Positions 7,328 through 15,307 of a stretch of DNA of 16,592 bases are shown one piece after another. A model generated the notes under the pieces. It saw nothing but the letters and a program-made list of their open reading frames with translations. It made no database searches and had not been told where the DNA came from. The number at the start of each line of letters is the position of its first letter. The stretch's first letter is position 1. Location: the IMG/VR virus record IMGVR_UViG_2531839664_000015, positions 1 to 16,592 of that record; one strand, written 5' to 3'. Source of the DNA: a virus (Duplodnaviria > Heunggongvirae > Uroviricota > Caudoviricetes). A program made the position numbers and the translations under genes.

Positions 7328-7360
7328 TAATATTTCCTCCGACAAAATCGTTTCTCAGAT

Positions 7361-8023
7361 TCAAATAAAACCAGCTGCCTTCCGGCGTTCGTATTCCTGT
7401 TTCAGCCGTTCAATTGGCGTTGGCCCTTGCGGGTGTTTCGCCCCTTCCAGTTGTCGTCGCACTGGCGGAACACTCATCCCGTTACCAACATGCTTTGCCC
7501 ATTTCGTCAGTTGCCGTTCCGCAAGTCGTTTTAACTCACCTTGCGTCATCTGGCGCTCAATCCCTCTGGTACGCATTTCGAGGCAGATGTGGTACAGCAC
7601 AGGCTGTGGCCACGGGTATTTATCACTCCCGTCGTATCGCCAGGATTCATTGCGCCAGCGCCGGTACTCTTCCATCACGGCATCCACCGTAAGACCAAAT
7701 GGATTTGCCCCACTCTCCGAAATCAGCGCAACAAACTCAGCCAGGTCCGGGGGCCACGTTTCACCCGCCCGGCAGCGGTCCATGCACTGACGGCACACCA
7801 GACGGATTTGCTGTTCAGTCATCGCACCAATCTGGGCAATCCAGAGCTTCGAAGGTGCGGCCCCGTTCTTCTGAGTCCAGCGGTTCGAATACACCTCCCC
7901 CATGAGCTCCCACAGCTTCCAGGCCGTTTCCGTTGCTGATAAATCCGTTGTCACGTTCCCACTGTTCGCGTGCAGCCCGGATTTCCTGAACTGCCCGTGA
8001 TGCCGTGCCACCTGATGCTGCAT
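7361..8023 (-). CDS. lambda P-like replication protein (helicase loader)
   Basis: Central and C-terminal blocks resemble lambda P as recalled (TEQQIRLVCRQ..., WPPDLAEFVALISE, VMEEYRRWRNESWRYDGSDKYPWP); ATG with a G-rich ribosome-binding site; sits directly after the O-like gene. Confidence 0.75.
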   Translation of the reverse strand: MQHQVARHHGQFRKSGLHANSGNVTTDLSATETAWKLWELMGEVYSNRWTQKNGAAPSKLWIAQIGAMTEQQIRLVCRQCMDRCRAGETWPPDLAEFVALISESGANPFGLTVDAVMEEYRRWRNESWRYDGSDKYPWPQPVLYHICLEMRTRGIERQMTQGELKRLAERQLTKWAKHVGNGMSVPPVRRQLEGAKHPQGPTPIERLKQEYERRKAAGFI

Positions 8024-8882
8024 GGCTTCCCCCCTTGCTGACTGGTTTTACCTGTGCCCTGACGTGCTGCACGTGGCGGGCAAATTTCTGCTCCCACTGA
8101 ACCTGCGTGAAAACCTTCCCCTCCGCCATCCAGTAATCCCGGAATGCGGCAAGCTCAGCAGGTGTAAATTCCGGCTCAGGCAGAGCCATACCCCACACTG
8201 CTGCCCGTTGTCGAAAATCCGGCGACGGCTGCCAGACAGTAGTCATCGGAAATTTCCCGATCGGTTCGCTCAGGCCGTCCAGGTATTCAGGTTCGGCTGT
8301 CTGCAACGGCGCACCATTCGACTCACTGGTCGGAATACTCTCGCGCGCGTTATGTGTGGGGTTTAATTCTGTATCTGTATCTTTATCTGTATCTTTATCT
8401 GTATCTTTATCTGTATCTTTATCTGTCGTGACTTGTCGTGACAGATGCGTGACACGTCGTGACTCATCGTGACAATCAGCATTATGTTTCCGCAGCTTTT
8501 CCCGCTCCCGCTGCGCTCTCTTGCGCTCTGCCGGGGATTTTGCCGTTTGCGAAACGTTACCATTGTCCTCTTTCAGCACCTGACGTTTTTCCCATCCGGA
8601 AATAAGGTCACCATCCAGAACCCGCCCCTGCATTGCATGCAAAATTGAATCAATTACGTCTTCCGTCACATCAAGCGCACTTGCTAAATCTTCCGTCGTG
8701 ACATCAATGTGACCACGTAGTGACACGCCGTGACATGTCGTGACATTTCGTGACGCACTCACCAGAAGATGGATATACACTGCCATCACTGTTGCGATTG
8801 GCTGTCCTGATACCCTGGCAATCGTTCGCCACTTGGGGTCATTTGGCATGTCATGCCACAATCTGAGCCAGGCATTAGCCAT
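7815..8882 (-). CDS. lambda O-like replication initiator with internal origin repeats
   Basis: 355 aa from the first ATG (the track start at 8888 is GTG). Sits immediately upstream of the P-like gene and contains phased iteron arrays and an AT-rich tandem repeat, as in ori-lambda; the repeat encodes a TDKDTDKD linker. Confidence 0.7.
   Translation of the reverse strand: MANAWLRLWHDMPNDPKWRTIARVSGQPIATVMAVYIHLLVSASRNVTTCHGVSLRGHIDVTTEDLASALDVTEDVIDSILHAMQGRVLDGDLISGWEKRQVLKEDNGNVSQTAKSPAERKRAQREREKLRKHNADCHDESRRVTHLSRQVTTDKDTDKDTDKDTDKDTDTELNPTHNARESIPTSESNGAPLQTAEPEYLDGLSEPIGKFPMTTVWQPSPDFRQRAAVWGMALPEPEFTPAELAAFRDYWMAEGKVFTQVQWEQKFARHVQHVRAQVKPVSKGGSHAASGGTASRAVQEIRAAREQWERDNGFISNGNGLEAVGAHGGGVFEPLDSEERGRTFEALDCPDWCDD
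8370..8423. repeat. AT-rich tandem repeat (hexamer TGTATC, then 4 copies of 12-bp unit TGTATCTTTATC); candidate DNA-unwinding element of the origin
   Basis: Direct reading: tgtatc + (tgtatctttatc) x4, lying next to the iteron array. Confidence 0.8.
8424..8473. repeat. iteron array 1: five CGTGAC direct repeats at 10-11 bp phasing (candidate ori iterons)
   Basis: CGTGAC begins at 8427, 8437, 8448, 8458 and 8468. Confidence 0.8.
8696..8753. repeat. iteron array 2: six GTGAC(A) direct repeats at 10-11 bp phasing
   Basis: GTGAC begins at 8697, 8708, 8719, 8729, 8739 and 8749, inside the 5' part of the O-like gene. Confidence 0.75.
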
Positions 8883-8950
8883 ACTCACCTCTTCTGATAC
8901 CGAACTTTACCCTCGAACATCCGGAAGAAATCCGGCATGAATATTGTTGG

Positions 8951-9376
8951 TCAATGCACGACAACAGCATTACCAGGCTGCCCCCCACTGTTAGTCAGGG
9001 TGCCCCAGGCGATCGCCGCTGCGACAAAATCATCCACATCTTTCACCAGCCGATCCCTCCGTTCGACGATCTCACGGTAATATTCAGAGCTGTGACTGCG
9101 CATACGGGCCACCAGCAGAGGCGGCATTGCCTTTTCGATCGCCGGTAACAGAGCCTGCATTTTTTCAACTGCATCAGGGGTGTCTTTCTCTATCCAGCGG
9201 AAAATTTTCTGGGTATTGCGAGCCAGGGCTTCCGGATGGCTGTCGTCGTACAGTTCAGGAAACGTCATACCCAACTCAAAATAAGCCTGGGTTATTCCAG
9301 CTGCCGGAACTTTTTCGCCATCAGGACGCGCCCAGGCATTCATCGCCATGCGGATGTGTTCATGCTTGATTTTCAT
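8951..9376 (-). CDS. ydaT: YdaT-family protein (cII-slot protein of Rac-type immunity regions)
   Basis: 141 aa from the ATG with a GGGGGGA ribosome-binding site; MKIKHEHIRMAMNAWARPDGEKVPAAGITQAYFELGMTFPELYDDSHPEALARNTQKIFRW... closely matches Rac YdaT as recalled. Confidence 0.85.
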   Translation of the reverse strand: MKIKHEHIRMAMNAWARPDGEKVPAAGITQAYFELGMTFPELYDDSHPEALARNTQKIFRWIEKDTPDAVEKMQALLPAIEKAMPPLLVARMRSHSSEYYREIVERRDRLVKDVDDFVAAAIAWGTLTNSGGQPGNAVVVH

Positions 9377-9602
9377 GAATCCCCCCTTGGTTAGAAGGCG
9401 GATTATGATCAGAATCGGGAATGACAACCGTCGGTATGTGTAACTCATATTTGAGCGCCCCGGCAGTGACTGCCTGAATTAGCAACGCCCATTTCCACGG
9501 AACGTCTTCCCCCCACATGCTGACTGTGGTTTTTGACGTTCCTAGAGCGGCGGCTGTTTTAACAACTCCGCCAAAATAGCCTAATACTTCTGATTTTTTC
9601 AT
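9360..9602 (-). CDS. Cro/YdaS-like helix-turn-helix regulator (80 aa)
   Basis: First gene of the minus-strand early operon, divergent from cI; helix-turn-helix segment VVKTAAALGTSKTTVSMWG; overlaps the ydaT start by 17 nt. Confidence 0.7.
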   Translation of the reverse strand: MKKSEVLGYFGGVVKTAAALGTSKTTVSMWGEDVPWKWALLIQAVTAGALKYELHIPTVVIPDSDHNPPSNQGGIHENQA

Positions 9603-9693
9603 GAGTCGCTCCATAAAACTGAACGCCAAAAGTTTAATAATCAAAACCAAAGAAAGTCAAGAAACAAAACCATCTGTGTTTTAAAATCAAAAC
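9603..9693. promoter_or_regulatory. divergent immunity control region (OR-like) with 18-bp palindrome TGTTTT-N6-AAAACA at 9677-9694
   Basis: 91-bp AT-rich intergenic region between divergent cro-like and cI-like genes; a perfect inverted repeat overlaps the cI start; a second partial palindrome AAAACT-N10-AGTTT lies at about 9616-9636. Confidence 0.5.
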
Positions 9694-10332
9694 ATGAACA
9701 AGCAAACAATATCTGAACGCATAACCCAACGTATGCATGCGCTAAACTTGAAAGGCAAAGACCTTGTCAATGCCACTGGCGCATCAAAAGGCTCCGTAAG
9801 TCAATGGATGAACGGTGGAGGAGCGCCGTCCTCGCGTTACATAAGTTCACTGGCAAAGATATTGAAAGTAAACGAAAATTGGCTTCTTAATGGAGGAGAG
9901 TTAAATACAGGTGATTCGCTTGATCTATCTTTACCGCCGATAAAAACGGTTCCGCTACTATCACTTCAGCAGGCAGCAAGCTGGAGTGATTATATGAAAA
10001 ATTCCTCAATAACCTCTTGTGTGCAGCTTGTCGGAGAAATCCCGGCCAATACCTTTGCTGTTGTTCTAGAGAGTGACAGTATGTCGACATCTGGTGGTGG
10101 AGTTTCCATCCCAAATGGTTCAACAGTTTTTGTTGATCCCGATCGAATCGTACAACCAGGAAATATTGTCCTTGCCTTACCCAAAGGGACCACAACGCCT
10201 GTCATTCGCAAACTGGAGATAGAAGGGCCGGATATTCTTTTAGTCCCCACGAATCCTCGCTACCCTTCAATTATGCTGGATGATCTATCTTGCATATTGG
10301 GAGTATGCTTTAAAATTCAACAAGATATTTAA
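9694..10332 (+). CDS. CI-like phage repressor (N-terminal helix-turn-helix plus C-terminal S24 LexA-like peptidase domain)
   Basis: 212 aa; helix-turn-helix LKGKDLVNATGASKGSVSQW; S24 motifs (AVVLESDSMS with the Ser nucleophile, downstream Lys in IRKLE). Confidence 0.9.
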   Translation: MNKQTISERITQRMHALNLKGKDLVNATGASKGSVSQWMNGGGAPSSRYISSLAKILKVNENWLLNGGELNTGDSLDLSLPPIKTVPLLSLQQAASWSDYMKNSSITSCVQLVGEIPANTFAVVLESDSMSTSGGGVSIPNGSTVFVDPDRIVQPGNIVLALPKGTTTPVIRKLEIEGPDILLVPTNPRYPSIMLDDLSCILGVCFKIQQDI

Positions 10333-10396
10333 CCAACCTCATCTATTTGATTAACTGTATGCCATCGTAGTGATGGCGTAACAGCTGCCTGCTTAA

Positions 10397-10445
10397 AATG
10401 TTTTGATAAAAAAACATTGACCTTAAATGTTCGTTTTTCTAAACT
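10397..10445 (+). promoter_or_regulatory. putative PL-like promoter (-35 TTGACC, 17-bp spacer, -10 TAAACT) overlapped by a second copy of the palindrome (10399-10416)
   Basis: Sigma-70-like hexamers at 10417-10422 and 10440-10445; the palindrome is identical in half-sites and spacing to the one at 9677-9694; a third AATGTT lies in the spacer. Confidence 0.4.
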
Positions 10446-10624
10446 TCATTCATTCCCTCACCCCGCCCCACAGAATGCAGGGCAATACTTCGAGTTACCA
10501 GGCAGTGGTCAGGGGTTAAGTAGCCAGCCCGAGGCGTAAGAACATGACGGCAGGGTTCAACTTTAATAACTATGCAGCAGGTTTTTGTTCCGCTACCCCG
10601 GCGTTAAGGGGAAATGAGGTCAAC

Positions 10625-10777
10625 ATGGATACGCTCAATCTTGGCAACAACGAATCTCTGGTATGTGGCGTGTTCCCCAACCAGGACGGTACGTTCACCG
10701 CGATGACGTATACCAAAAGCAAAACGTTTAAAACTGAAGCTGGCGCGCGTCGCTGGTTAGCCAGAAACACTGACTGA
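10625..10777 (+). CDS. small hypothetical protein (50 aa)
   Basis: ATG with GAGG at 5-nt spacing; stop overlaps the next ORF (TGATG). The 77-aa track ORF has no RBS at its first ATG. Confidence 0.5.
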   Translation: MDTLNLGNNESLVCGVFPNQDGTFTAMTYTKSKTFKTEAGARRWLARNTD

Positions 10778-10788
10778 TGAGGTTGACG

Positions 10789-11427
10789 ATGGAATTTAAA
10801 GATTTACCTCCTTCAATCCAGGAGATTGCAGCACACACACTTCGTCATCGTCTGAACGAACTTGAATTGGAATCGGTAACGAAAAAAGACACTGATAATA
10901 TGGCTCGTAATGTGCGCGATGCGTTTACCGGATTGTATTTCTGTGCGTCTATAAATAAACACGACTCAGAGAGTGTGGCAAATAAAATTGCAGAAACGAC
11001 AGCGCAAAACATCAATACGAAACCAACGGAAGAAGAAATTGATCAGTTTGCTCATGATGCTGGTTTAAAAAACAAGAAAGAAAAATCGCCATATGCGGGG
11101 AACATGTTTGTTTATGACAATCTCATCAGAATTCGTGGCGAAATTCCGGCGGAATACCTGGCAAGAGTCCATCAGGCATTGCTTAAAAATTTGGAAACAG
11201 AATTATTTGATGGCAACACTAACGGTTTCTTCATGGTATCAGGCCTTGAGAAAGACTGGGATGCAGAAAAACGCTGGAATGTTGCTACATGGTTATTCAG
11301 TAACAGAGCCGCTGCACTGGAAGCTTCGGCATGTATTTGCGGCCTGTTCTTAACAGACCACAAATATAATCTGGATGTGTACAGTTATATTTACGCTGAA
11401 CACGGTCCACTCTGGATTGACTGGTAA
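10789..11427 (+). CDS. hypothetical protein (212 aa), unknown function; cargo next to the immunity region
   Basis: ATG with GAGG at 6-nt spacing (the track start at 10777 has no RBS); translationally coupled to the 50-aa ORF; no recognisable motifs. Confidence 0.6.
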   Translation: MEFKDLPPSIQEIAAHTLRHRLNELELESVTKKDTDNMARNVRDAFTGLYFCASINKHDSESVANKIAETTAQNINTKPTEEEIDQFAHDAGLKNKKEKSPYAGNMFVYDNLIRIRGEIPAEYLARVHQALLKNLETELFDGNTNGFFMVSGLEKDWDAEKRWNVATWLFSNRAAALEASACICGLFLTDHKYNLDVYSYIYAEHGPLWIDW

Positions 11428-11637
11428 TTATAAGGAAACACCAGCAGGGCCGCGGCGACCAACAGAACGATTAAAATCAATAATGCCATTATAAAGGACA
11501 TTATTTAATTTATCGTCGAATGCTGATTCTGTGAGCCTCAACTCTGAATGAGTTTTTAATAACCCTGATTGCCTGAGTTGATTTACCAGGCATTCAATCT
11601 GTTTTTCAATAAGCGGATTTCTTTTTTTGTTTGGCAT
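11428..11637 (-). CDS. hypothetical small protein (69 aa), opposite in orientation to the surrounding operon
   Basis: Internal ATG with GGAGGA at 5-nt spacing; converges tail-to-tail with the 212-aa gene (stops adjacent). Confidence 0.45.
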   Translation of the reverse strand: MPNKKRNPLIEKQIECLVNQLRQSGLLKTHSELRLTESAFDDKLNNVLYNGIIDFNRSVGRRGPAGVSL

Positions 11638-12201
11638 TTTATCCTCCATTGAGGTTCTGGGTTAAAAATGGAGACCAACACGCTGTCACGTGTGGTCGTG
11701 CGCCGGACACGGATAAGAATCCGGTACTGACAGTTTACTGAAAGGATATTTCCCTGAAAAGTCAGTGCATAACGCGAAAGCGTACGGCGAAGCTCTTTCC
11801 CTTAGAAGGCTTGTCGTTAGATTTCTTCGAACGTGCGCTTCCGGTTGTGGCACTCCGCGAAATGGCGCGGCGGTAAGTATGGCGGGGTTATTCCTTCCCC
11901 ATTGAGGACACCGGGTTGTCAGGTTGACCATACGCTTAAGTGACAACCCCGCTGCAACGCCCTCTGTTATCAATTTTCTGGTGACGTTTGGCGGTATCAG
12001 TTTTACTCCGTGGCTGCTCTGCCGCCCTTTTTAAAGTGAATTTTGTGATGCGGTGAATGCGGCTAAGCGCACGCGGAACAGTTAAAACCAAAAACAGTGT
12101 TATGGGTGGATTCTCTGTATCCGGCGTTAATTGTTAACTGGTTAACGTCACCTGGAGGCACCAGGCACTGCATCACAAAATTCATTGTTGAGGACGCGAT
12201 A

Positions 12202-12390
12202 ATGGAAACGTTATTACCAAACGTTAATACGTCTGAAGGTTGTTTTGATATTGGTGTTCTGCTCAGTAACCGGGAGTTTACTGAAGATGCCATTAACATG
12301 AGGAAATATGAGCCTTATCTGCTCAATGATAATTCCATACTTTCCCGAATTGCTCTTCTTGAACTTGGTATTTTCGGAGAACGTCAATGA
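12202..12390 (+). CDS. small hypothetical protein (62 aa)
   Basis: ATG at 12202 with GAGGA at 7-nt spacing, shorter than the track ORF. Confidence 0.45.
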   Translation: METLLPNVNTSEGCFDIGVLLSNREFTEDAINMRKYEPYLLNDNSILSRIALLELGIFGERQ

Positions 12391-12575
12391 CTTCAGCATT
12401 TGCACTGATGATGACGGTTTTTCTTATAACGGGTGAATCACAGAATGTGATTACCGGAATTTATGCCAGTAAAGAATCCTGCCTCCAGGCAAGAGACGAG
12501 CAAAAAATTTCTGGTGAATGCCTCCCGGTAAAAAAAGTATCGCTGTACCTGAATAACGAAACACCGGCTGGATAA
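12387..12575 (+). CDS. small hypothetical protein (62 aa) with hydrophobic N-terminus
   Basis: ATGA overlap with the preceding ORF (translational coupling); N-terminal MTSAFALMMTVFLITG is signal or transmembrane-like. Confidence 0.45.
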   Translation: MTSAFALMMTVFLITGESQNVITGIYASKESCLQARDEQKISGECLPVKKVSLYLNNETPAG

Positions 12576-12667
12576 CCCTCCAGCCATATTAACACCATAC
12601 CAACGGATTAAAAATGCCAGCAATGGCAGGGATTTGTTCACCCTTAAATCTGTAATGAGGTTTATCA

Positions 12668-15130
12668 ATGAGCACTGATAAAGAAGAATTTGCGCTATAT
12701 TGCGAAGCAAAAAATGACAAAGTCAGAAAACGTCTGGGAATTAAAGGTGGTTTTTACTGGACTACAGCAAAAAAATTATCTGTTGCCATCTCCCGCTGCA
12801 TTACCGCAATGGATGACAACGATTATGATGAAGACGACTTTAAAAAACCCGTTCGCGTCCATTTACCCGTTGTGAATGACCTTCCACCTGAAGGCGTGTT
12901 TGATACCGAATTCTGCAACCGATACGAAAAAGGCGGGGAAGATGGCATTACAATGGTATTTATCGCGCCCTCTCCCTCCGTGCAGGAGAAACCAGCCAGT
13001 ACTGACAATACCAACGTCAACGGCGAAGACATGACGGAGATTGAGGAGAATATGCTCCTGCCGGTTTCTGGTCAGGAGCTGCCCATTCGCTGGCTTGCGC
13101 AACACGGCAGCGAAAAACCAGTAACGCACGTTGCACGGGAAGAACTTCAGGCATTACATATAGCACGGGCGGAAGAACTGCCGGCTGTTACTGCCCTGGC
13201 CATTTCTCACAAAACAAAGCTGCTCGACCCGCTGGAGATTCGCGACCTTCACAAACTGGTACGCGACACTGACAAAGTTTTCCCTAATCCCGGTAATTCA
13301 GACCTGGGACTGATAACTGCTTTTTTCGAGGCATACCTGGACGCTGACTACACTGATCGGGGTCTGCTGACAAAAGAGTGGATGAAAGGAAATCGTGTTT
13401 CGCGTATCACCCGTACGGCTTCCGGTGCAAATGCCGGTGGCGGGAACAAAACCGATCGCAATCCGAATTTAGTACACACCTTCGATACGCTGGATGTGGA
13501 GATTGCAGCAGCCACACTTCCGATGGATTTTAATATTTATGAAATTCCGGGCAGCGTTTATCGTCGCGCAAAAGAAATCGTCCTGAAAAGAGAAAGTCCG
13601 TTCAAAGAATGGTCCGCAGCACTTCGCGCAACCCCGGGTATTCTGGACTATTCCCGCGCCGCTATTTTTGCACTTATCCGGAGCGCTCACCCTGAGTTTT
13701 ATCACTACCCGGGACGCCTTCAGGGGTATATCAACGCCTACTTAACGGAGACTGATCACGAGAACCCCAGCAAGGAAACTCTCACTGCTGCACGACATAC
13801 ACCGGAAAAAGATATCCTGGAAGAAGTTAACCGCGAACTGTCTGCTAAGCAGGAAACAGAAGAAGAAGAAAATGATGAAGAAAAACCGCAACCATCTTGC
13901 GCAATGGCAGATGAACAGGCAACGGCTGAAACAGTGGAACCGGATGCAACTGAACATCATCAGGACACGCAGCCGCTGGATGCTCAGTCACAGGTAAATT
14001 CTGTTGATGCGAAATATCAGAAACTGCGGGCAGAACTCCATGAAGCCCGGAAAAACATTCCGCCCCAAAATCCTGTCGATGCAGACAAATTACTGGCTGC
14101 CTCTCGCGGAGAATTTGTTGAAGGGATTAGCGACCCGAATGATCCGAAATGGATTAAGGGGATCCAGACCCGCGATTCTGTGTACCAGAACCAGCAAGAA
14201 ACGGAACAGAACGACCAGAAAGCGGAACAAAACAGCCCAAATGCGTTACAAAACGAGCCAGAAACGAAACAGCCTGAACCAGTGGCGCAACAGGAAGTGG
14301 AAAAAGTCTGCACCGCCTGCGGTCAGACCGGCGGCGGCAACTGCCCTGATTGTGGCGCGGTGATGGGCGACGCAACATACCAGGAAACCTTCGATGACAA
14401 GAACCTGGTTGAAGTTCAGGAAGACGATTCGGAGAAAATGGAAGGCGCTGAACATCCACACAAGGAGAATGCTGGCAGCGCTCAGGACCACGCCAGCGAT
14501 AGTGAAACTGGCGAGACGGCAGATCCCTTAATTACGGTGAACGGTCATCACGTTATCACATCCACCAGCAGGACGTGTGACCATCTAATGATCGACCTTG
14601 AAACCATGGGAAAAAATCCTGATGCCCCGATTATCTCAATAGGTGCAATATTTTTCGATCCGCAAACCGGAGATATGGGACCGGAATTTAGTAAGACTAT
14701 CGATCTGGAAACTGCTGGCGGAGTCATTGATCGGGACACCATTAAATGGTGGCTTAAGCAATCACGCGAAGCGCAATCTGCCATTATGACCGATGAAATC
14801 CCGTTAGATGATGCACTGTTACAATTGCGGGAATTTATCGACGAAAACTCCGGTGAATTTTTTGTTCAGGTCTGGGGAAATGGAGCCAACTTCGACAACA
14901 CGATTTTGCGCCGTTCATACGAACGGCAGGGGATCCCCTGCCCGTGGCGTTACTACAACGATCGCGATGTGCGCACAATCGTTGAGCTGGGGAAAGCCAT
15001 AGACTTCGATGCCAGAACGGCTATTCCATTCGAAGGTGAGCGCCATAATGCACTTGATGACGCCCGTTACCAGGCAAAATACGTTTCAGTTATCTGGCAA
15101 AAACTGATCCCGAGTCAGGCTGATTCTTAA
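12668..15130 (+). CDS. RecE-like (exodeoxyribonuclease VIII-like) protein with C-terminal DEDDh/DnaQ-like 3'-5' exonuclease domain
   Basis: 820 aa; ATG with an AATGAGG ribosome-binding site. N-terminal and central segments resemble the non-catalytic region of Rac RecE as recalled; acidic linker; CxxC...CxxC zinc-ribbon ([16 protein letters not shown]). The C-terminal ~190 aa carry the three DEDDh motifs DLETMG, GNGANFD and HNALDDA. Confidence 0.8.
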
Positions 15131-15201
15131 TGTTCAACTGTCGCCGGTTGTGACTGGTATTCTGCAACCGGCGCTCGTCTGATGTAAGAGATAAAGAAGC
15201 G

Positions 15202-15243
15202 ATGAGCGAAGTAATCATGATTGTCTCTCCCGGCAAATGGGTA
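15202..15243 (+). pseudogene. 5' fragment (14 codons) of a small ORF interrupted by the IS element
   Basis: ATG at 15202 (MSEVIMIVSPGKWV) runs into the IS left end; the same frame continues after the IS (SEEQLIALKGIKKGTLKKAREKSFMEG...) once one copy of the GTA duplication is removed. Confidence 0.5.
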
Positions 15244-15307
15244 TGAGGTAGCCTGAGTTTAACGGACACTCCTTCCTGAAATAGAATGGCATCAGAAGGA
15301 GCTAATA

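Follow-up and report, generated by a model that had tools for sequence, protein, structure and literature searches.

The window analysed here, i.e. the whole stretch of 16,592 nucleotides (16.6 kb) that makes up positions 1 to 16,592 of IMG/VR virus record IMGVR_UViG_2531839664_000015, is the early region of a lambdoid prophage and contains a nuclease gene (positions 12668-15130, + strand) in which a RecE-type scaffold is fused to a DEDDh domain related to the T4 exonuclease DexA. Architecture and fold of the encoded 820-amino-acid protein are near certain: the C-terminal domain has an RNase H-like DEDD fold with a DEDDh catalytic set, and it stands where RecE carries its PD-(D/E)xK nuclease. 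As to function, we propose that the protein processes DNA ends with 3'-5' polarity as part of the lytic programme, on a RecE scaffold and in phages that would rely on host RecBCD, Chi and RecA, a chain of steps to which we assign, as a whole, a probability of about 45%.

A DexA-like domain on a RecE-type scaffold

The features of the nuclease gene are as follows (positions in the window; pLDDT, predicted local distance difference test score of AlphaFold models).

12668-15130, + strand: nuclease open reading frame (ORF), 820 amino acids, RecE-type scaffold fused to a DEDDh exonuclease
12668-12967, + strand: N-terminal alpha/beta domain, residues 1-100 (AlphaFold pLDDT about 82-92 for residues 4-100; not Rac-like by BLASTP)
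12836-13234, + strand: PF06630 (Exonuc_VIII N-terminal), residues 57-189 (Pfam, E 2.5e-34)
13055-13807, + strand: two helical scaffold domains, residues 130-245 and 270-380 (pLDDT about 80-90)
14123-14152, + strand: conserved 10-residue motif, residues 486-495, at the upstream edge of the acidic linker
14147-14569, + strand: acidic linker, residues 494-634, predicted to be disordered (pLDDT <50)
14309-14356, + strand: CxxC-x7-CxxC zinc-ribbon-like motif, residues 548-563, inside the acidic linker
14532-14533, + strand: breakpoint at which homology to Rac recE ends in DNA and protein (RecE residue ~590-592; BLASTP and DNA alignment)
14562-14569, - strand: Chi site (GCTGGTGG), 30 nt past the breakpoint
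14582-15112, + strand: DEDDh (DexA-like, PF16473) 3'-5' exonuclease domain, residues 639-815
14594-14611, + strand: Exo motif I, DLETMG, residues 643-648 (D643/E645 = DexA D7/E9)
14876-14896, + strand: Exo motif II, GNGANFD, residues 737-743 (D743 = DexA D119)
15044-15064, + strand: Exo motif III, HNALDDA, residues 793-799 (H793/D798 = DexA H186/D191; H-x4-D, the 'h' subtype)

In Pfam, PF16473 (Rv2179c-like 3'-5' exonuclease) matches residues 639-810 with an E value of 1.5e-67 and 227.2 bits against a cut-off of 27, covering model positions 2-177 of 177, and no PD-(D/E)xK family of Pfam matches the 820-residue protein. The only solved relatives found by sequence are the T4 DexA entries 8KEL and 8KEN (profile E 4e-15), and in an alignment with DexA and the stand-alone homologues DexA residues D7, E9, D119, H186 and D191 fall in invariant columns with D643, E645, D743, H793 and D798. 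An AlphaFold model of residues 620-820 (pLDDT 84, predicted template modelling score 0.81) retrieves DexA as the top Foldseek match (E 3e-11, TM score 0.70), followed by RNase T, a Cas2-fused DnaQ domain and oligoribonucleases, and there is no lambda-Exo or RecE fold among its matches. Profile search, position-for-position alignment of the motifs and structure prediction thus all agree with an earlier sequence-only reading, which had placed three DEDDh motifs in the last ~190 residues and had proposed that they replace the lambda-Exo-like PD-(D/E)xK fold of RecE. DexA is the best solved relative by both sequence and fold and aligns in all five catalytic residues, although the identity is only about 28% and DexA is a stand-alone protein of 227 amino acids from a virulent phage with extra loops. 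Because the catalytic pentad is intact and DexA is the closest solved relative, we infer that the protein is a metal-dependent 3'-5' exonuclease that would act on DNA 3' ends. Two distant representatives of the fusion, P0127 and P0132, lack the full catalytic set (DLKTMG for DLETMG, FA or FN for FD) and are likely to be inactive copies.

The scaffold, for its part, is related to RecE of the Rac prophage. Residues 58-623 match residues 50-592 of K-12 Rac RecE with 62% identity and nothing beyond (BLASTP), and the DNA homology to recE stops at window position 14532. The earlier assignment of some 630 N-terminal residues to RecE holds for this stretch but was slightly generous, as the first 57 residues are not Rac-like. 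In K-12 RecE (b1350) the PD-(D/E)xK nuclease domain spans residues ~606-866, and because PF12684 (PDDEXK-like) lies at 615-850 and the crystallised RecE nuclease is contained within 564-866 (PMC11611040), the homology break falls at the start of the RecE catalytic domain. Both proteins share the PF06630 region, the helical domains, the motif at residues 486-495, the CxxC..CxxC motif and a position in an early-left operon upstream of xis-int, whereas the window protein carries a DEDDh domain instead of the PDDEXK-like one, has a predicted polarity opposite to that of RecE, differs in its first 57 residues and is not accompanied by recT, ralR and rcbA.

Going by database names the protein might pass for an ordinary RecE, i.e. 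the 5'-3' exonuclease VIII, as relatives are labelled 'exodeoxyribonuclease VIII' or 'exonuclease VIII, ds DNA exonuclease' and the PF06630 match points the same way. However, the PD-(D/E)xK domain is missing, the NCBIfam RecE equivalog NF007259 reaches 1001.5 bits, below its cut-off of 1269, and covers residues 1-623 with model positions 1-603 of 877, similarity to RecE goes no further than its residue 592 and the C-terminal fold is DEDDh, so that this reading is refuted by the domain and fold results. The 5'-3' polarity implied by the exonuclease VIII labels is, in terms of domain content, probably wrong. Labels of this kind are borne by phage Tritos TRITO_27 (L021:5269-7740, 'exonuclease VIII, ds DNA exonuclease') and by the gene at L015:7001-9442 ('exodeoxyribonuclease VIII'), both with a DEDDh (PF16473) nuclease domain, and in a copy split by an insertion sequence (IS) the NCBI pipeline names the two halves 'RecE family exodeoxyribonuclease' and '3'-5' exonuclease'. 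K-12 exoD (DLP12) was considered as a remnant of the fusion gene and rejected, there being no similarity.

Three folded domains and the long linker make up the scaffold. Residues 1-100 are ~85% identical to the N-terminus of a nuclease-less scaffold protein from Shigella phage 75/02 Stx (BLASTP), the helical domains include two sequence stretches that are kept in distant relatives, and the full-length AlphaFold model shows an isolated helix at residues 440-462. Relative to phage 640R1 the ratio of nonsynonymous to synonymous substitution rates is 0.06-0.08 in the folded scaffold domains (0.08 in the domain of residues 1-100) and 0.37 in the linker, i.e. purifying selection is strong on the former and selection is relaxed on the latter. 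Neither sequence-profile nor fold searches found a solved-structure relative of the scaffold. The motif at residues 486-495 is common to Rac RecE, the Qin-type allele and distant relatives of other genera, with variable and poorly predicted flanks, and it may be a docking site for a host protein.

Distribution and mosaic history of the fusion gene

Databases list this widespread architecture, but under wrong labels, and in the literature that could be searched no functional study of a RecE-scaffold/DEDDh fusion was found. The sequence-only reading had left its novelty open, with good reason, since the architecture is abundant in databases as 'exonuclease', '3'-5' exoribonuclease' or 'exodeoxyribonuclease VIII' and matches a PHROG family. 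Copies 100% identical to the 820-residue ORF occur in E. coli O121/O157 chromosomes under the label 'exonuclease'. The DEDDh module (window 14540-15130, at least 80% coverage) is present in 4052 of 5426 complete E. coli genomes (75%), at 8101 places, as compared to 1730 of the 5426 (32%) for the canonical RecE nuclease segment; the window's own allele accounts for 1275 genomes. By exhaustive HMMER search the DEDDh domain family comprises 12,156 clusters at the 50% identity level. Its members nearest to the window domain (at least 53% identity) are nearly all 550-900 amino acids long with the domain at the C-terminus, the more distant ones are stand-alone proteins of ~180-200 amino acids, and of ten diverse long representatives nine have PF06630 together with PF16473. 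A search started from the N-terminus listed near-identical E. coli copies and nothing else, a result that speaks to abundance and not to diversity. Related loci sought with the single protein numbered 11, a sample suited to comparing gene order rather than to surveying the family broadly.

The gene, which belongs to a Qin/Tritos-type lambdoid prophage, is a mosaic, and the Qin type is a further allele of it. With Rac recE it shares 80-88% identity at residues 113-264 and 396-622, while from residue 471 to the end, and on into xis, the DNA is 95-96% identical to the Qin/Tritos allele, the first 470 residues of which are unrelated; a near-identical DEDDh module is common to alleles with unrelated N-termini. 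The Tritos allele has 823 amino acids, and residues 270-820 of the window protein are 78% identical to it. Tritos TRITO_27 and the intact Qin gene resemble the window gene in their operon (ydfABC-like genes, DicF, dicB, ydfD, nuclease, xis, int), in the DEDDh domain, in the lack of an annealase and in their richness in Chi, but differ in the Qin-type N-terminal 470 residues, which start with MSKVFICAAIPDE and are without a PF06630 match. What remains of the Qin allele in K-12 is the ydfE pseudogene, which is cut by IS2. The Qin, Tritos and 640R1 alleles share the Chi site at 14562-14569, which Rac recE lacks, and the site may mark a recombination hotspot behind the domain swap, or its position may be coincidence. 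A 22.9-kb contig from a metagenome-assembled genome of 'Veillonella parvula' (JAGZPX010000007.1) carries a 100% identical exonuclease domain, the same N-terminus and an E. coli-type xis-int and is almost certainly an Escherichia binning contaminant.

A gene of this history might be a non-functional relic, i.e. a scar left by recombination in decaying prophages, without a selected function, and several observations fit: xis is broken by IS600 in the window, ydfE is cut by IS2 in K-12, frameshifted and IS-split copies exist (H9 and H15), and P0127 and P0132 have lost some catalytic residues. We nevertheless regard this as highly improbable, as thousands of genomes, together with the isolated phages Tritos (OV696610) and vB_EcoS-640R1, carry the full-length ORF intact, the folded domains bear the mark of strong purifying selection, and the catalytic pentad is kept across a clade of several genera that diverges to ~55% identity.

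A possible role in the processing of DNA ends

The gene order of the window runs from tRNAs, an antiterminator-side helix-turn-helix gene, RusA, hok/sok, O-/P-like replication genes, YdaT and Cro to a LexA-like cI repressor, which is followed by DUF1391, DicF, dicB, a ydfD-like gene, the 820-residue ORF, xis and int. The order DicF-dicB-ydfD is the same in K-12 Qin and phage Tritos, and xis and then int follow the nuclease gene directly in 11 of 11 fusion loci. Judged by this order the nuclease gene would be the last large gene of a dicBF-type early-left operon, and a promoter scan of positions 11400-12668 found no promoter-like site on the + strand upstream of it. Because it stands as the last large gene in a repressor-controlled early-left operon, directly upstream of xis-int, we infer that it is repressed in the quiescent lysogen and made after loss of the repressor.

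The sequence-only reading had also seen no RecT-like annealase after the gene, and this extends to the whole 16.6-kb window, in which annotation, Pfam and PHROG searches of the other sizeable ORFs, and tblastn found no RecT, no lambda Bet, Exo or Gam, and no mEp235 Erf, SSB or Abc2; beyond the window the prophage is known through the annotation of reference strain L001 only. The same tblastn queries found no RecT, Bet, Erf, SSB, Gam or Abc2 in ten related fusion loci, which span E. coli, E. ruysiae, E. albertii, Pluralibacter, Scandinavium, the intact Qin prophage and phage 640R1, Tritos being judged by its annotation. Chi, on the other hand, is abundant, with nine sites in the window (between 1117 and 14569) versus 0.55 expected, a number reached in none of 200 shuffles. 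Seven of the nine lie on the - strand, which corresponds to the lambda top strand, and would meet RecBCD entering from the late-gene end, an orientation called active in a survey of lambdoid phages (PMC12315714). Tritos is the prototype of class B in that survey (Table 1), which is defined by a nuclease, the lack of an annealase, SSB or anti-RecBCD gene, and abundant Chi (PMC12315714), and the window shows the same features, i.e. a homologous nuclease in the same operon, no annealase, SSB or anti-RecBCD gene, and abundant Chi in the active orientation.

Both halves of the protein are found elsewhere in the company of recombination (Rec) modules. In Rac, recT lies beside a gene in which the scaffold bears the RecE nuclease. 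In Shigella phage 75/02 Stx, AXI88_gp06 (L048:3501-5549, 682 amino acids) is 48% identical over residues 1-610, with PF06630 present, is labelled 'exonuclease VII', is devoid of a nuclease domain and immediately precedes gam-bet-exo; like the window protein it possesses the N-terminal domain that Rac RecE lacks, while nuclease and annealase are supplied in trans. AXI88_gp06 may represent the 'RecE-2' class of the above survey (PMC12315714). As for the nuclease half, the stand-alone homologue gp30 of phage mEp235, 58% identical to residues 638-813, lies inside an Erf-SSB-Exo-Abc2 module and belongs to the 'DnaQ-like' Rec-module nucleases of lambdoid phages (Genome Res 2025, PMC12315714). The epsilon34/mEp235 nuclease shares with the window protein the homologous domain and a place in the early-left operon near xis-int, but it is a stand-alone protein of 182 amino acids, contiguous with an Erf annealase, SSB and Abc2, whereas the window has none of these and its nuclease is fused to the scaffold. 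There are no Chi sites in the mEp235 region.

The occurrence of both halves with Rec modules (recT in Rac, gam-bet-exo in 75/02 Stx and Erf-SSB-Exo-Abc2 in mEp235) speaks for a role in end processing and recombination, as do the intact copies in isolated phages, the constant position next to xis-int, the early-left operon and the abundance of Chi. The RecE scaffold, with its three folded domains and long disordered linker, carries the DexA-like DEDDh domain in place of both the PD-(D/E)xK 5'-3' nuclease domain of RecE and the adjoining recT, and in the proposed scheme it would form a module in its own right that delivers an end-processing nuclease to DNA ends or to intermediates of recombination. 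The 3'-5' exonuclease could then serve phage replication and recombination together with host RecBCD and RecA, in Chi-rich phages that have neither an annealase nor a RecBCD inhibitor, by trimming 3' tails, flaps or displaced strands. Alternatively, it might resect 3' ends and thereby expose annealable 5' tails.

That an ExoI-like activity may aid recombination by Chi and RecBCD is an idea from the genetics of the 1990s. Several points weigh against the proposed role. PF16473 is named after an RNase, and the substrate might be DNA or RNA. Moreover, 3'-5' exonucleases usually lower recombination, and deletion of ExoI raises linear assembly by Red and RecET 65-70-fold (PMC13048471). Nucleases of the present type are said to 'usually inhibit homologous recombination', and DnaQ-type nuclease genes that adjoin int are not counted as members of Rec modules (both PMC12315714).

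The main rival is anti-phage defence or superinfection exclusion, in which the DEDDh domain would degrade invading DNA that contains 5-hydroxymethylcytosine (5hmC) and the scaffold would target it to incoming DNA ends. EcD ('HREX'), an E. coli homologue of DexA, is reported to cleave 5hmC DNA only and to protect against T4 from a plasmid (NAR 2025, PMC12153337). Via the primers of that paper, which encode MIDTET...PFLNI, we recovered EcD from IMG/VR contigs; it corresponds to HAK9828821.1, has 189 amino acids and Ala78 as published, and is 37% identical to the DEDDh domain of the window protein (E 2e-36), in which the catalytic residues are intact. Both proteins belong to the same domain family and are encoded in the early operon of a temperate phage, but EcD stands alone, without a RecE scaffold, and the idea that it is the C-terminus of the window protein was rejected since it is a separate protein. 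DexA is proposed to read 5hmC with W152 and D169, to which Y763 and K776/A777 correspond in the window protein and W and E in EcD; as the loop alignment is uncertain, this lack of conservation is a weak negative. Conversely, D715 aligns with D90, the tetramer-forming Asp of DexA, where EcD has Ala78, i.e. EcD keeps the W and an acidic residue without the D90 equivalent, and the window protein shows the reverse.

The EcD locus itself (L045:6401-6991, - strand, and also L024, L029, L039 and L042) is a P2-like prophage with the order cox, EcD, Dam, replication gene A. EcD thus lies in the early lytic operon of this prophage; prophages are not mentioned in the published report (PMC12153337). Since EcD lies in a lytic early operon, its defence role rests on overexpression, and the published HREX defence claim is affected in that EcD and most of its E. 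coli homologues are early lytic prophage genes. The gene in the window, in turn, matches no PADLOC model, lies far inside a repressed early-left operon and has no promoter-like site to itself; its protein differs at the 5hmC-reading residues and possesses the Asp that EcD lacks. We therefore consider defence unlikely and less supported than lytic end processing. Of the functions suggested by the sequence-only reading, an alternative recombination module or a nuclease of defence or counter-defence, the context speaks more for a part in the DNA metabolism of the lytically growing phage than for defence in the lysogen.

Another lytic function could be host takeover or counter-defence, with the nuclease scavenging host DNA like T4 DexA or destroying nucleic acids of the host or of defence systems, e.g. 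RNA, short oligonucleotides or multicopy single-stranded DNA (msDNA). However, the closest sequence is that of DexA, a DNase, and a connection with DNA ends and recombination is suggested by the RecE scaffold as well as by the Rec modules around both halves. Moreover, lambdoid phages are not known to degrade host DNA. This role is thus quite improbable.

A bolder version of the end-processing proposal, which we put forward with considerable doubt, regards the RecE N-terminal region as a self-contained module that would target DNA ends or the replisome and accept interchangeable payloads, namely a PD-(D/E)xK 5'-3' domain, a DEDDh 3'-5' domain, or none with Red in trans. The DEDDh form might then be a mirror-image, annealase-independent end-processing system, exposing annealable 5' tails by resection of 3' ends or clearing 3' tails and flaps, which would enable Chi-rich lambdoid phages to form concatemers via host RecBCD and RecA. 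If true, this would add a hitherto undescribed strategy of recombination in phages and would provide a handle on the function of the RecE N-terminus. Although RecET is a mainstay of recombineering, the N-terminus of RecE, some 600 residues long, is still 'of unknown function' in two recent papers, apart from its promotion of linear-linear recombination (PMC11611040; PMC13048471). That the scaffold occurs with a nuclease of opposite polarity, or without any nuclease beside lambda Red, argues for a scaffold function independent of RecT and of nuclease chemistry. The DEDDh form is commoner in E. coli than canonical RecE and often mislabelled, and surveys of Rec modules can thus give the wrong polarity to the sole recombination-like gene of a Chi-rich, annealase-less lambdoid class.

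Flanking elements and stand-alone homologues

The other features of the window are listed below.

25-98 and 202-274, - strand: two tRNAs (Rfam), Arg and Ile by the annotation of reference strain L001
4568-4742, - strand: sok antitoxin RNA (Rfam), beside the hok gene
11976-12027, + strand: DicF small RNA (Rfam, 75 bits), upstream of dicB
12202-12390: dicB (Pfam DicB)
12387-12575: ydfD-like gene (Pfam DUF1482)
15142-15173, + strand: hairpin between the nuclease gene and xis, with a 10-bp stem and no U tract, conserved
15202-15243, + strand: excisionase gene, first 14 codons (MSEVIMIVSPGKWV), resuming at 16511 after the IS
15244-16507, + strand: IS600, 1264 bp, inserted in xis after codon 14, with a target duplication of GTA at 15241-15243 and 16508-16510

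A hairpin and a small ORF disrupted by an IS had been noted downstream of the nuclease gene from the sequence, and both are found, the ORF being xis, the intact homologue of which on the 'Veillonella' contig matches PF06806 (putative excisionase). Because IS600 interrupts xis, the prophage is probably excision-defective. In reference strain L001 a second IS3-family element, absent from the window, lies here. The hairpin is unlikely to be an intrinsic terminator, as it lacks a U tract and folds with an ordinary energy (z -0.8); phage 640R1 shows one compensatory change in it, G-C to A-T.

Stand-alone homologues of the DEDDh domain also occur in the early regions of other temperate phages (L012:6563-8570, L014:570-3203 and L011). 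The one from Xenorhabdus lies near an Nmad5 gene and an ORF of the size of a family A DNA polymerase, the latter assigned from its sequence rather than by profile. Among the neighbours of the others are a DUF2303 (YfdQ-like) gene and an integrase in Serratia and, directly downstream of one homologue, a P2-type replication gene A.

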